Shown: piece after piece, positions 20,019-51,211 of the stretch | Layout of the letters: every line of letters starts with the position of its first letter | How positions within the stretch are numbered: position 1 is the first letter of the stretch | Assembly (NCBI GenBank): GCA_951406725.2 | Contig: OX597821.1 | Span: 15,438,001 to 15,502,000 of the forward strand | DNA: 64,000 nucleotides | Reading direction: 5' to 3' | Origin: Octopus vulgaris | Taxonomy: Eukaryota | The notes under the pieces: model-generated | Databases searched by the model: none | The model's input: the letters and a program-made list of their open reading frames with translations, nothing else | What the model was told of the DNA's origin: nothing | Position numbers and translations under genes: made by a program

Positions 20019-20186
20019 CAGTAATCCATCGACTATAGCGTGTGCTACGTTCCAAGACTACCCGTAACAGGAGAAAATCCGCGAAGTAAAAACGGTACTG
20101 TACTGAATATATATATATACATATACATATACATATAGACATATATACACACATATATATAGACATATATACACACACATATATAT

Positions 20187-20241
<55 letters not shown>

Positions 20242-20344
20242 CATACACATACATACATATACATATACATATACATATATATACATATACACATATATAC
20301 ATATATATACATATACATATATATACATATACATACATATACAT

Positions 20345-27060: not shown

Positions 27061-27264
27061 CCTCGTGAGTACCGCTGGCGATTTTGTTTCCTCTGTCTTC
27101 CCTTCTCGGGATCTTTCCTTCTCCTATGTTTCCGACGAAGAGCTCCGCTCGAAACGTTAAACCCTCCTTCTTCCCTTCTTTCCTGAGCGTCCAATAATAC
27201 TTTATTTGTTCCACGTCCTCGCGTTGTTGTGTTTTTTTGTTTTTTTGTGTTTTCTTGTTTGGAT

Positions 27265-27269
<5 letters not shown>
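27061..27269 (+). mobile_element. PLE pLTR-like element carrying a minimal hammerhead and ending in (TA)n
   Basis: Hammerhead motif at 27128-27162. The 3' end GGATTAAC(TA)n is shared with the truncated copy at 29641-29728. Confidence 0.65.
27128..27162 (+). ncRNA. Minimal type I hammerhead motif (dimer type)
   Basis: GTTT-CCGACGA-A-GAGC-TCC-GCTC-GAAAC-GTT-AAAC. Stem I is GTTT/AAAC, stem II has 4 bp, stem III is the palindrome ACGT, and the core is a U4C variant. Confidence 0.65.
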
Positions 27270-27317
<48 letters not shown>

Positions 27318-29801: not shown

Positions 29802-30461
29802 CGATGAGTTTCGGTAAACGGTGTCGAATTTAAAAATCTGTAGATAATAATTATAATATTTTATAAGCTTAAAACTTATAAGCGATCACCGAGCATTGAC
29901 TGAAGTAAATAGCCTAATATTGAGGCGCGCATATATATATATATATATATATATTAAACAACAGATACACTGAAGTGTCTATCCGCTAGAAATAAAAGTT
30001 AGAACCCTCATTCGGACCACCAAAAATTACATTGGAAATAACAAATACAACATATATATATGTATGTATATGTATGTATATACGTATGTGTGTGTGTGTG
30101 TGTGTGTTTATACTCTTTTATTCCTTTTCATCTTTGAGTTATTTGACTGCAGCATTGCTGGAACACCAAATTTAGTCGCAGAAATCAACCCCAGGACTTA
30201 CTCTTTGTAAGCCTAGTACTTATTCTATAGGTCTCTTTTCCCGAAACGGTAAGTTTCAATGAAATGAACGTACCAACATCGGTTGTCAGGCGATGGTGGG
30301 TGGGAGAGGGGGACAAACACAGACAGGAAGACACACACATAACTTCATATATATATATATACCGGAGTAAACACATAAATGTGAAACAAGGTGGAAAAAA
30401 GAGTACTCAAATACCAGTGGTAGAGTAGCTTTATTTAAAGCAGCAGAAAATTCAACAAAAC

Positions 30462-30499
30462 CTGTTACTCCGAGTTTCACGTTCCCATTCGTCGGACAG
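30462..30499 (-). ncRNA. Minimal type I hammerhead motif
   Basis: Minus strand: CTGT-CCGACGA-ATG-GGAA-CGT-GAA-ACT-CGG-AGT-A-ACAG. Confidence 0.6.
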
Positions 30500-30522
30500 T
30501 TTTTGTTAGAATCTAGCAAAAG

Positions 30523-30560
30523 CTGTCCGACGAACGGGAACGTGAAACTCAGAGTAACAG
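30523..30560 (+). ncRNA. Minimal type I hammerhead motif
   Basis: CTGT-CCGACGA-ACG-GGAA-CGT-GAA-ACT-CAG-AGT-A-ACAG. Stems I-III can pair, loop II is GNRA, and the predicted cut is after 30556. Confidence 0.68.
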
Positions 30561-30593
30561 GTTTTGTTGAATTTTCTGCTGCTTTAAATAAAG

Positions 30594-45081: not shown

Positions 45082-45163
45082 ATATATACGCAGATGTTGT
45101 GCGTGCCACAAACCACCAACATGATGTTGTCGAAAGGGCAGCTGCTGAGCAACAATCTTTTTT

Positions 45164-46690
45164 GTGCATGGCACAAAAGATTGTACAGCAGCTGACCTGG
45201 CTTCATCAAACCCAAGCCCGCAGGTGGGACTACCCACTATATACCAGACCACCACAACAGCAAACAGACCCAGGATGGACACCACCGGTAACAACGTACG
45301 CCTCACCTCGATGCTCCTACTGAACATCAGAGGACTGCAAACACTCAGTAACAGGACAAAAATCCCGTTCCTGAGAGATTTTGTTGCATGCAATCAAGTC
45401 TTATGCATAGCACTAACGGAAACGCACCTGAAACCGGATATAGCAGATGCGGAGTTACACATACCACAGTATGCTGTACTACGGACCGACAGGAAAGAAA
45501 GGAGTCATGGAGGTGTTGCTATGTACATCCGTGAGGACCTCACACCCCAGGTCCTCTTGTCATACTCAAACTCGGTGTGTGACACACTAATTGTACATAT
45601 TAGGCAACTTGATGTAGTTGTGTGTGCTACATATCGCCCTCCAGATACCCCAAGCCATGTGGGCAAGTTTGAAGACTGCCTTATAAAAATAGAAGAAGTT
45701 CTAACCTCATTAGAACAACACATAAGTGTACTTCTTATGGGAGGCTTCAATCTGCCAAATGTCAGATGGCCCGAGGGCCTTTCTCTCCCAGGAATGACAA
45801 GATGTGAACGAGGACAGGCGAGGTCCCTCCTGAACCTCATCAACACCCTGTACATGGAGCAGGTAATACTCCAACCAACCAGGGCAGGTAACACACTGGA
45901 TCTCTGCTTCACAAATGACATGGGTCTCATCCATAATGTGAAAGTGACACCGACACTACTCTCGGATCACAACATGATAGAGCTGACCATGTACGGGCCA
46001 AAAGAGAGCACGGACATGCAGCCTACAAGAAACCCTCAGAATCTTTCCAGCTTGAACTACCATAAGGCAAACTGGAAACAAATTGAGAAAGAGATCCTCA
46101 AACAAAACTGGCCTAAATGTCTCTCCTCGCCAGACATCGACGTGAAACTTCAACAATTCATGTCTGTAATGCAAGCCATATGCTACAAATGTGTCCCAGA
46201 GAGAAAGGCCACCGTACACAAGAACAAAATTCCCAGAGAGAGGAAAATTCTAATGAGACGGCGTACAAAATTTTCAAATCGCCTAAACAAACAGATTGAA
46301 AGCAGTGAAAAGTCCCGCCTAAAAATAAAACTGTTGGAAATCGAAAAATGTCTGCAACTCTCCCATGAAAAGGAAAGAGCAGACAAAGAAGCCTCGGCTA
46401 TAGACAACATAAAATCTAACCCCAGAGCTTTCTACAGGTATGCCAAAGAAACAGCTACGGTGCACTGTAGAATAGGGCCACTCCTCGAAAAGGATGGCAC
46501 ACTTACAGGAAAACCAATGAGGGTAAGTGAAATACTGAATGAGCAATTCAAGAGTGTTTTCACTCCACCCCTTGGGCATCTCCAAATCACCAATCCAACT
46601 GACTTTTTTACCACTGCAGATATAAAATCAGAGGCGGCGACGATAGATTACATCGATATAGGAAGACGATGTAATCAAGGCTATAGATGA
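45164..46690 (+). pseudogene. LINE ORF2 N-terminal part: apurinic-like endonuclease
   Basis: Motifs NIRGL, IALTETHL, GGVAMYI, YRPP, GGFN (GDFN mutated), PTR..NTLDL and SDH. A frameshift occurs near 46660. Confidence 0.92.
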
Positions 46691-46691
46691 A

Positions 46692-48254
46692 ATGAAAACA
46701 GACTCAGCTACTGGCCCCGATGGATTCCCGGCAATCCTCCTAAAAGCATGTAAGAGAGTCCTAGCAAGACCACTGCAGTTCCTCTTTCAGAGCTTCCTTG
46801 CAGCTGGCAAACTTCCAAGAAAACTGAAGGAAGGTAAAATATGCCCCATTCATAAAGGAGGTAGCAGAGCGGAAGCCAAGAACTATAGACCTATCTCTCT
46901 GACCTCACACATCAGCAAGGTCATGGAACGAATAGTCAGAAGGAAGCTGATCACCTTCCTTGAAGAAAATGACTTGCTGCCCGACACCCAACATGGTTTC
47001 CGACCAGGGAGAAGCTGTTTAACTCAGCTCCTACAACACTATGACTGGGTGCTGAAACGGCTGCTCAACCACTCAAATGTGGAAGTCATATATCTCGACT
47101 TTGCAAAGGCCTTTGATAAAGTCGATCATGGAATGATATGTCACAAACTGCGTGATCTCAACATAGTTGGAAAACTGGGAGAATGGCTTCATGACTTTCT
47201 GAAAGATAGAAGTCAGGTGGTAGTGGCCATTTACACGCAAATAGTGAGCGGTGTTCCACAGGGCACTGTTCTGGGACCACTACTGTTCATAATGGCCCTC
47301 TCAATCATGCCCTCAGCCACGCAGAGAGCCACGATCACAAGTTATGCAGATGATACAAAAGATTCACAGGCAATACAGAACCCTGAGGACACCAAACACC
47401 TGCAATGTGAGCTAGACAAAATATACAAGTGGGCCGAAAAGAATAGCATGCAGTTCAATGCTGAAAAGTTTCAAGCTCTATACTATCAGCATGCAAAACT
47501 AAATGCAATACCCAATGAATACACTGGACCCGGAGGAATAGCAATCCCAGAGGCACAATCAGTGCGTGACCTAGGTATTTACATGAGTGATGACGCGACC
47601 TTTCATGTACATGTTGCTAAATTGGCAATGAAATGTAGACGACTGGCCGGATGGATCCTCAGAACCTTTAGAACAAAAGAACAAGAAACTATGATGGTCC
47701 TCTGGAGGACACTTGTCCTAAGCCACTTTGACTACTGCTCTCAGTTATGGTCACCATCCAGGGTCAAGTTGATCACAGAGCTCGAGGCGATCCAACGTAG
47801 CTACACGAAGAAGATAGCCTCTATGCAGAATGTAAGCTACTGGGAAAGACTCAAGAGATTAAAATTATATTCCCTGGAGCGTAGGCGGGAAAGATATGCC
47901 ATAATATACATCTGGATGATCCTGGAGGGAAGTGTCCTGAACTTTGGCATCGAGAGTTACGCAAATGCCAGAACTGGGCGCCACTGCGTGGTGCCTAGGA
48001 CTCCGAACTTGCCATCAAGATGTAGGACAAGATTCTGTGATAGCCTGGGCTTCCGAGGCCCACAGCTCTTCAATATCCTCCCGAAGAACCTAAGAGACCT
48101 GCATGGGGTGGATACAGATATCTTTAAAATGAAGCTGGATCTCTTCCTGTCAGGTGTCCCAGATGAACCAACTTCACGGCAGGAGGGGCAGATGAGGGCA
48201 GCTGCATCGAACTCTCTCATGCACCAAATAGCAGTTGCTAGAAAGCCTTCATGA
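46692..48254 (+). CDS. LINE ORF2 C-terminal part: reverse transcriptase (frameshifted from the APE part)
   Basis: Motifs GPDG, NYRPISLTS, QHGFR, YLDFAKAFDKV, GVPQGTVLGP, YADD, RDLG and YWERLK.LKLYSLERRRERY. Confidence 0.93.
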   Translation: MKTDSATGPDGFPAILLKACKRVLARPLQFLFQSFLAAGKLPRKLKEGKICPIHKGGSRAEAKNYRPISLTSHISKVMERIVRRKLITFLEENDLLPDTQHGFRPGRSCLTQLLQHYDWVLKRLLNHSNVEVIYLDFAKAFDKVDHGMICHKLRDLNIVGKLGEWLHDFLKDRSQVVVAIYTQIVSGVPQGTVLGPLLFIMALSIMPSATQRATITSYADDTKDSQAIQNPEDTKHLQCELDKIYKWAEKNSMQFNAEKFQALYYQHAKLNAIPNEYTGPGGIAIPEAQSVRDLGIYMSDDATFHVHVAKLAMKCRRLAGWILRTFRTKEQETMMVLWRTLVLSHFDYCSQLWSPSRVKLITELEAIQRSYTKKIASMQNVSYWERLKRLKLYSLERRRERYAIIYIWMILEGSVLNFGIESYANARTGRHCVVPRTPNLPSRCRTRFCDSLGFRGPQLFNILPKNLRDLHGVDTDIFKMKLDLFLSGVPDEPTSRQEGQMRAAASNSLMHQIAVARKPS

Positions 48255-48345: not shown

Positions 48346-48420
<75 letters not shown>

Positions 48421-48452
48421 TTTATTTTAAGCAGCAGAAAATTCAACAAAAT

Positions 48453-48490
48453 CTGTTACTCTGAGTTTCTCGTTGCCGTTCATCAGACAG
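48453..48490 (-). ncRNA. Minimal type I hammerhead motif
   Basis: Exact reverse complement of 48505-48542. Confidence 0.65.
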
Positions 48491-48504
48491 TTTTCTAGCA
48501 AAAA

Positions 48505-48542
48505 CTGTCTGATGAACGGCAACGAGAAACTCAGAGTAACAG
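48505..48542 (+). ncRNA. Minimal type I hammerhead motif
   Basis: CTGT-CTGATGA-A-CG-GCAA-CG-A-GAA-ACT-CAG-AGT-A-ACAG. The CUGAUGA/GAAA core is canonical with a GUA triplet and a predicted cut after 48538, but stem II has only 2 bp. Confidence 0.68.
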
Positions 48543-48644
48543 ATTTTGTTGAATTTTCTGCTGCTTAAAATAAAGCATATTACTCTACCACTGGTATTTG
48601 AGTACTCTTTTTTCCACCTTGTTTCACATTTATGTGTTTACCCC

Positions 48645-48733
<89 letters not shown>

Positions 48734-50196: not shown

Positions 50197-51211
50197 CAGG
50201 GGTTGGACAAAATAACGGAAACACCTAGCATCATAGCATCATAATTTTGAAATATCTATAAAACCGTCAAAAGCTTGTTTATTTTTATGTTTTTTTTAAT
50301 TTATTATTAGTGTAGCTTCATATGTTTTGCTAAAATCGCCGTTTTGTTTTTCAGATATTATCAGAAAATGGTAAATAAATTCATTAAAATGACTGTCAAA
50401 GAGATCAAGTTGTTGCTGCTCGTATGGCAGGCGCTAGCGTAACGAAAACAGCCGAAATGTTTGGTACTGTCTCGAAAGTAATGACGGACTTTGAGAAAGA
50501 GGGAAAAACCTCATCGAAACAAAACTCCGGAAGAAAACCAAAACATTCAGATAGGGACCGTCGGACTCTTACGCATATTGTTAGAAAGGATCACAAAAGT
50601 ACAGATCCAAAAATTACTGCAGAACTTAGCGACCACCTCGAGAACCTAGTTTCCACAAAACCTCTTCGCTGGGAGCTGCACAAATCCGGATTTCACGGGA
50701 GGGCAGCAATCAGAAAACAACTACTTTCAAAAGCAAACGTGTGGAGACAACCAAAAGAAGCATTTGACCCAGACTGCCTCCTTCCAACTGCTAAACATGA
50801 AGGAGGATATGTGATAATCTGGGGGAGGGGTCAATATCTTCGAAATCCAATGATTTCCCTTCATGGCAGAATTAATAGTCAAGATTATTTCAGCATTTTA
50901 TCTCATCAAATTCATCCTATGGTTGCGGAACTGTTTCCGGAGAGAAAGCCAATCTTTCAGGATGAGAATGCACCAATTCACACAGCTAAAGTTGTTCCTG
51001 AATGGCTTGAGGAACATTCTAGTGAAGTTGAACATCTTACGTGGCCACCACAGTCCCCAGATCTCAATATTATTGAACATTTATGGTGCATTTTAGAAAA
51101 GCAAGTGAGGATTCGATATCCTCCACCATTATCACTACAAGTACTGGAGACTGTTTTAAAATAAATTTGTTTGAAATTTTAAGGTGTTTCCATTATTTAG
51201 TCCAACCATTG
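50197..51211 (+). mobile_element. Tc1-family DNA transposon, internally deleted
   Basis: TA|CAGGGGTTGGACAAAATAACGGAAACACC and reverse complement TA|CAATGGTTGGACTAAATAATGGAAACACC; TA TSDs on both sides. Confidence 0.92.
50424..51164 (+). pseudogene. Tc1 transposase, defective
   Basis: SGRKPK motif, HTH region, FQDENAPIHTAK and WPPQSPDLNIIEHLW. The segment carrying the first catalytic Asp (FSDE) is missing between KANV and WRQP. Confidence 0.88.

Follow-up and report, generated by a model that had tools for sequence, protein, structure and literature searches.

Positions 48420 to 48646 of the window (the whole 64,000-nucleotide stretch of Octopus vulgaris DNA that was analysed) hold a palindrome with a hammerhead ribozyme (HHR) motif on each strand, which is confirmed here as a real element with thousands of kindred Penelope-like element (PLE) fragments. 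The element consists of head-to-head pLTR pieces of an autonomous PLE, probably left by one abortive insertion and not copied from a palindromic master. Within this explanation, a parent element, fixed outer ends, a variable inner junction and a 'wall' at which the 5′ ends of the arms halt are all observed directly.

Positions are given in parent-pLTR numbering, counted from the C that opens the HHR core (window 48509), which is 0. We propose that the PLE protein would nick both strands of a (TA)n target, with reverse transcription primed by one nick at site 1 (+66) and by the second at site 2 (+137/+139), 71 nt downstream. Ordinary PLE mRNA would start about 17 nt ahead of the HHR core, so that the HHR, site 1 and site 2 would all fall within its leader, and the two cDNAs would run off the capped 5′ end of the mRNA after about 80 and 150 nt, to be joined by microhomology (TT in the copy described here, CTAG in the commonest type). 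From read-through or circular RNA templates would come the long and tandem copies, their outer ends at the same two sites. Having neither the upstream promoter-like (CCAAT) region nor the ORF, the short product would be dead on arrival. We advance more tentatively, as a serious possibility, that both target strands are primed by one RT-endonuclease dimer, which would use two different fixed sites of a single RNA, with capped mRNA yielding a double strong-stop palindrome and full copies arising only from read-through or circular RNA. Two primings fit the in vitro behaviour of a Poseidon PLE as presented in the accessible text of PMC11167929, in which both strands are cut and reverse transcription starts from two sites bounding the tail; the start sites in that account, which concerns another clade, show no strand difference, and this counts against the proposal.

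Layout of the element and its hammerhead motifs

The inverted arm (48420-48494, minus strand) corresponds to -8 to +66 of the parent pLTR and ends at site 1 on the left (TA)n target (48348-48419). The palindromic part of the direct arm (48501-48575, plus strand) also extends to +66 and is followed by a 71-bp tail (48576-48646, plus strand), which continues the parent sequence from site 1 to site 2 toward the ORF and abuts the right (TA)n target (48647-48731). The two arms are perfectly complementary over 75 bp around the spacer CTAGCA. The palindrome, the HHR motif on each strand and the tail of about 70 bp in (TA)n described in the earlier note all stand. At the inner junction (48493-48500, plus strand), a TT microhomology of 2 nt precedes CTAGCA and the direct arm begins at parent position -16, adjoining the 5′ wall at -17. 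A foldback DNA transposon or MITE was rejected as the identity of the element, given that the 71-bp tail sits outside the inverted repeat and the ends match a retroelement.

Each arm contains a minimal type I HHR motif, at 48453-48490 on the minus strand and at 48505-48542 on the plus strand with a palindromic stem III, for which our descriptor predicts cuts after 48457 and after 48538 respectively. The core boxes, stems I to III and the NUH triplet are all present, although stem II has just 2 bp, flanked by unpaired A/A. Searching both strands of the 64 kb with the descriptor gave four matches, every one inside the two palindromic copies of the window. Among the best 150 of 331 Rfam rows the hammerhead family is absent and the palindrome locus draws only sub-threshold miRNA-like hairpin rows, while a general repeat search of the window was dominated by microsatellites. 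Across 48 arms that span the motif the stems are nearly invariant, without covarying changes; the variable points are core positions 4 (C in older subfamilies) and 7, loop II and the base preceding GAAA.

The second copy that had been placed near 30361-30593 is present, at 30362-30593 (minus strand, tail on the left), and has the same layout with another inner junction; its core, however, is CCGACGA in both arms and not CUGAUGA, and it belongs to an older subfamily. It is 87% identical to the copy at 48420-48646, with four mismatches between its own arms.

The parent Penelope-like element

A 27-nt motif from the tail has 5,018 exact matches in the genome assembly (2.8 Gb in 227 contigs) and a reversed control has none, so repeats related to the palindrome are not a product of chance. 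Pairs of tail motifs spaced 3.35 kb apart led to two full units, L041 and L042. The parent unit is 3,352 bp long and comprises, in order, a pLTR, an ORF, a long AT-rich 3′ region and a second pLTR; the frame is open in L041 (727 aa) and frameshifted in L042. Compared with the parent pLTR (L041), with which they run colinear, the direct arm plus tail at 48501-48646 shows 98-99% identity and the inverted arm 97.5-98.8%. The link to PLEs made in the earlier note is thus borne out by an open-frame parent with which arms and tail are colinear at 97-99%.

The parent protein has RWK at residue 53, DKT at residue 129 and a YRDDG motif; the CxCX5C linker is intact in L042, and in L041 the second C is replaced by F. 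Its putative endonuclease region has a GVVY..YTG box at 596-616 with no Cys between, CxxC at 683 and CxH at 711. The L041 protein matched no Pfam family and found no relative below E 0.17 in PDB, and a homolog (P0002, 43%) matches GIY-YIG. Among 8,000 scored candidates there were 1,766 homologs, the nearest named one being a Solemya velum protein with a GIY-YIG match. These motifs, together with (TA)n targeting, are among the marks of the Hydra clade according to the accessible text of PMC8557442, and the parent, which shows both an HHR in its pLTR and a (TA)n target, is by its motifs best placed as a Hydra-clade PLE. Its 3,352 bp exceed the 'generally under 3 kb' given there for the clade. 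The parent also has AATAAA at +59 to +65 (window 48568-48573), right at site 1. We presume that this could serve as the PLE polyadenylation signal in the downstream pLTR.

Other elements of the window

A tblastn search of the 64-kb window with the parent protein returned nothing, and the LINE adjoining the palindrome was accordingly rejected as the parent. This LINE (45149-48254, plus strand) comprises an endonuclease-like frame (45149-46690) and a reverse transcriptase frame (46662-48254; RVT_1, E 6e-29), terminates in (ATCA)n directly before the (TA)n of the palindrome and is unrelated to the parent PLE. A stretch at 20177-20306 (minus strand) has 69% identity over 131 bp to the parent 3′ region and is possibly an old relic of a related element. 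At 50388-51164 (plus strand) there is a 258-aa frame that we take to resemble a Tc1/mariner transposase fragment.

Another short HHR-bearing repeat ending in (TA)n lies at 27067-27270 (plus strand, core at 27132), and a 19-nt motif from it has 10,276 matches. About half of 30 inspected loci begin at one 5′ point 65-70 nt ahead of the HHR and none has an inverted arm; they may have come from single cDNAs of another PLE family that ran off their template, or may represent a SINE-like unit. In the right flanks of two loci of the palindrome family (L011, L029), beside the same (TA)n tracts, lie HHR-like motifs that belong to further families, which suggests that several PLE families share these targets.

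A 5′ wall and a candidate transcript start

Counts of end types and of palindromes come from samples. The main one comprises 80 of the 5,018 tail matches (the first 78 listed on contig C1 and two in L044), covers the first 63 Mb of one contig and is biased to young copies. In it the 5′ ends of the arms cluster at a wall 17 nt ahead of the HHR core. Tailed arms end within -18 in 64 of 80 cases; among the 37 that reach -11, 21 end by -18, and the remaining 16 divide into three that end within 82 nt and 13 that pass -100. Of the short inverted arms, 25 extend as far as -11 and every one of them has ended by -18, long inverted arms being outside the reach of the script used. Genome-wide, 2,161 of 5,090 arms that match to -14 also match to -23, a drop that mutation explains in part.

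In the parent, the wall falls on CCATTCT with A at -17, a sequence that we take to be initiator-like, and CCAAT at -92 agrees with what we take to be the CCAAT-box consensus. The non-parental base directly before the arm is enriched for G: the G:A ratio is 283:216 at -17 (where the A set counts perfect palindromes twice) and 50:18 at -19 (hand count of 68), against 20:62 at an internal control site (hand count of 82; Fisher p 5e-8 and 2e-9 respectively). At -16 the ratio of G to C is 74:19 (hand count of 93, without a matched control). According to the available text of PMC9341517, a cap that is reverse-transcribed can leave an untemplated G as its mark. When 30 G cases at -17 were inspected, 15 were explained by the CTAG of the other arm, about seven more may be, and eight were not. 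The wall at -17 is likely to be the start of the PLE mRNA.

The wall also coincides with the end of a predicted extended stem I and with the CTAG palindrome, and so the double priming could be kept and the wall explained structurally: the cDNA would fold back on finishing the extended stem I (-16 to +44), or microhomology at CTAG/TT would favour a junction at that point, and no transcript end would be involved. The predicted extended stem begins at about -17, CTAG is the commonest junction type (6 of 49) and two loci (L077, L085) are joined through stem I complementarity. Partnerless copies, however, also halt at or before -17 (for example L058, L086, L116 and L132), the exceptions being long copies or L146 (about -38); no confound of this kind is apparent for the excess of G at -19; and a structural stop would not give the pairing of long arms with long arms reported below. 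We regard this explanation as unlikely, and prefer to read the wall as a transcript start.

Outer ends and the pairing of arms

The outer ends fall at two sites that differ between the arms. Site 2 (+137 or +139) is the end of 74 of the 80 tailed arms, and site 1 (+66) is the exact end of 39 of 49 short inverted arms, five more ending within a few bases of it. Genome-wide there are 4,765 site-1 ends against TA, a number near the tail count. The first 30 site-1 loci include 18 with a short inverted partner, all of them tailed and none ending at site 1; the remainder are six long loci and six without a partner. Tail sequence on both arms was found in three exceptions in the tail sample (L044, L045, L068). 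Long loci, chosen as long pairs, have one site-1 and one site-2 outer end in 10 of 12 cases.

Either arm can be the longer. In 45 palindromes the inverted arm reaches farther 5′ in 22 (by more than 5 nt in 15 of these), the tailed arm in 16, and the two are equal in seven; the tendency of the site-1 arm to outreach the tailed one does not attain significance (p 0.42 and 0.31). Within a copy, the arms agree at subfamily sites in 202 of 205 comparisons, against a background mismatch of 41/2,300, a concordance that fits one RNA or two RNAs of one source alike. Arm lengths are likewise paired, with ten long/long, two mixed (one of each kind) and 42 short/short copies (p 5e-9) in a tally made by hand from which partnerless rows and six odd or borderline rows (L044 twice, L045, L068, L071, L104) were dropped; each event would thus seem to have drawn on one template, or on one class of template.

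Self-priming, in which a single cDNA or antisense template folds back and copies itself, has been proposed (PMC3846280, in its accessible text), and the short palindromes at the junctions and the matching arms of a copy are as it would have them. A cDNA folding back from site 2 cannot, however, outreach itself to yield an inverted arm that extends farther 5′, as is seen in the 22 palindromes above, and a cDNA begun at site 1 cannot furnish the tail; from these two points we infer that two primings are needed, and we consider self-priming highly improbable.

One end of a continuum of insertions

The earlier note had favoured a non-autonomous, retrozyme-like unit, and this reading finds no support in the copies viewed in genomic order. 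The 49 palindromes in the 80-copy sample have 37 distinct pairs of inner ends, and only 20 of the 49 have a whole HHR on both arms. The inner junction of the copy at 48420-48646 occurs 41 times genome-wide against some 5,000 copies. Of 30 such copies inspected, 11 have a tailed long arm, 12 a tailed short arm and seven are unclassified, and the 30 span several subfamily variants. A few of the 41 are non-independent, L008/L013 and L161/L162 being likely segmental duplicates with similar flanks or shared private changes. The best 30 BLAST matches to the palindrome do appear uniform, but their ranking follows similarity to the query, and copies taken in order of position showed otherwise.

Insertions of the long kind end at the same two outer sites, their junctions lying kilobases upstream, and some of these insertions exceed one unit in length. 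Fixed outer ends, with junctions that range from short to kilobase scale, put the 227-bp element among the shortest members of a continuous series of PLE insertions. Heterogeneous boundaries had been expected if there were no discrete family, and this held for the inner junction; the outer ends, by contrast, are fixed. The fallback reading of a 5′-truncated, inverted PLE end gains its parent, with colinear arms, fixed 3′ ends, variable 5′ ends and a one-sided tail, but loses its random truncation, since the 5′ ends halt at a sharp wall. Two large nested loci were also noted: L251 (G000:C1:64212500-64222400) has two inverted halves that both exceed one full unit, and L252 (63047500-63055000) has a unit and a partial tandem with a 2-kb inverted half.

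A non-LTR retrozyme was rejected: monomers of 150-450 bp in head-to-tail tandem were not seen at the 80 tail copies among the matches listed, the 49 palindromes have 37 types of junction, and the junction described here occurs 41 times among about 5,000 copies. Contigs of four of 24 listed sequencing runs, which we guess to be RNA, cover the parent, with summed depth far higher over the arm and tail; contigs being uninformative on starts, strand, level and editing, we give this pattern no weight as evidence. That a palindromic RNA was itself reverse-transcribed by PLE protein acting in trans retains very little probability. In its favour are the fixed outer ends, the abundance of related sequence in the contigs just mentioned and seven near-identical 227-bp copies (99% or more) among the matches listed. 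Against it, the junction recurs in few copies, either arm can bear the tail, the subfamilies concerned also include long copies, junctions run continuously from a few bp to more than one unit, the CCAAT region and the start of the ORF are absent from the palindrome, and no short head-to-tail arrays occur at the 80 sampled tail copies among the matches listed.

Predicted folding of the transcript

The earlier note also proposed that the element could be processed from a transcript of either polarity, or act as a conformational switch. Whichever strand is transcribed, the antisense arm emerges before the sense arm, and a read-through RNA is predicted to form a hairpin of -134.8 kcal/mol, compared with -56.0 kcal/mol when the HHR is forced, so that the hairpin is predicted to bury both ribozymes; processing from either polarity is accordingly unlikely. 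The hairpin may, as the note suggested, be a dsRNA substrate of ADAR or Dicer. Metazoan minimal HHRs are described as inactive as monomers and weak as dimers in the accessible part of PMC4209133 and, taken with the predicted hairpin, this makes double-strand cleavage or switching unlikely.

Discussion

The element itself is ordinary PLE debris, and its value is as a natural data set. Twin priming of L1 elements produces inversions in a comparable way, with two primings on one target joined by microhomology; L1 arms copy different parts of the RNA, whereas the octopus arms copy the same part from two fixed sites. The retroviral strong-stop product is likewise a short cDNA that runs off the 5′ end of its RNA, the difference here being that the run-off product is itself integrated.

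Several features are already in print, in the accessible portions of the works cited: PMC8557442 describes inverted 5′-truncated PLE copies that bear a tail on one side, PMC4209133 reports pairs of HHRs on opposite strands close to truncated PLEs, and PMC9977147 gives PLE insertions that are very short, with a median of 128 bp. As described in PMC8557442, Hydra-clade PLEs share with the octopus element a single ORF with a C-terminal GIY-YIG-type region (putative in the octopus), the RWK, DKT, CxCX5C, CxxC and CxH motifs, a pLTR HHR, a (TA)n target, partial tandems, an adjacent inverted 5′-truncated copy and a tail at one end. They differ in unit length (generally <3 kb, against 3.35 kb) and in the tail, which is given as 30-40 bp for PLEs and measures 71 bp in the octopus, where, moreover, most sampled insertions are tiny. 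In Cercyon PLEs of Schistosoma mansoni (PMC4209133, as far as available), two neighbouring minimal type I HHRs likewise occupy opposite strands, scattered motifs are ascribed to truncated PLEs and a palindromic helix III needs dimers; there, the HHRs lie 100-700 bp apart and the available text gives no mechanism, whereas the octopus cores are about 20 bp apart and their ends have been located at single-base resolution.

Poseidon PAc of Anolis, in the accessible text of PMC11167929, agrees in having two RT starts that bound the tail, both target strands cut and extended, an AT-rich target and an HHR upstream of the RT start sites. PAc belongs to another clade, however, and its sites lie inside the ORF whereas those of the octopus element precede it; nor does that text describe a site-1/site-2 asymmetry or a 5′ run-off wall such as we find. 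Metazoan non-LTR retrozymes (PMC7229834; bioRxiv 10.64898/2026.07.22.740005; both in part) are also short, non-coding, PLE-related and equipped with a type I HHR; they form head-to-tail tandems that give rise to circular RNA, in contrast to the single head-to-head pairs, colinear with an autonomous parent, of the octopus. A search of the open literature (Repbase/Dfam, subscription papers and supplements being outside its scope) did not find the asymmetry of sites 1 and 2, either arm being the longer, a wall at an initiator-like site or the G excess.

The origin of the tandem and inverted structures of PLEs is still called undefined in the accessible text of PMC8557442. Thousands of young copies and an open-frame parent provide base-level rules that are testable in vitro: the asymmetry of the two sites, the freedom of either arm to be longer, the 5′ wall with its extra G and the paired arm lengths, which argue against a simple fold-back. 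They also provide a caution, in that matches ranked by similarity can make PLE debris pass for a discrete ribozyme family. If correct, double priming by a dimer would jointly explain the inverted ends of PLEs, the one-sided tail and the need for tandems, and about 3,000 short perfect hairpins (extrapolated from 49 in 80 of 5,018) would have been seeded in the octopus genome.
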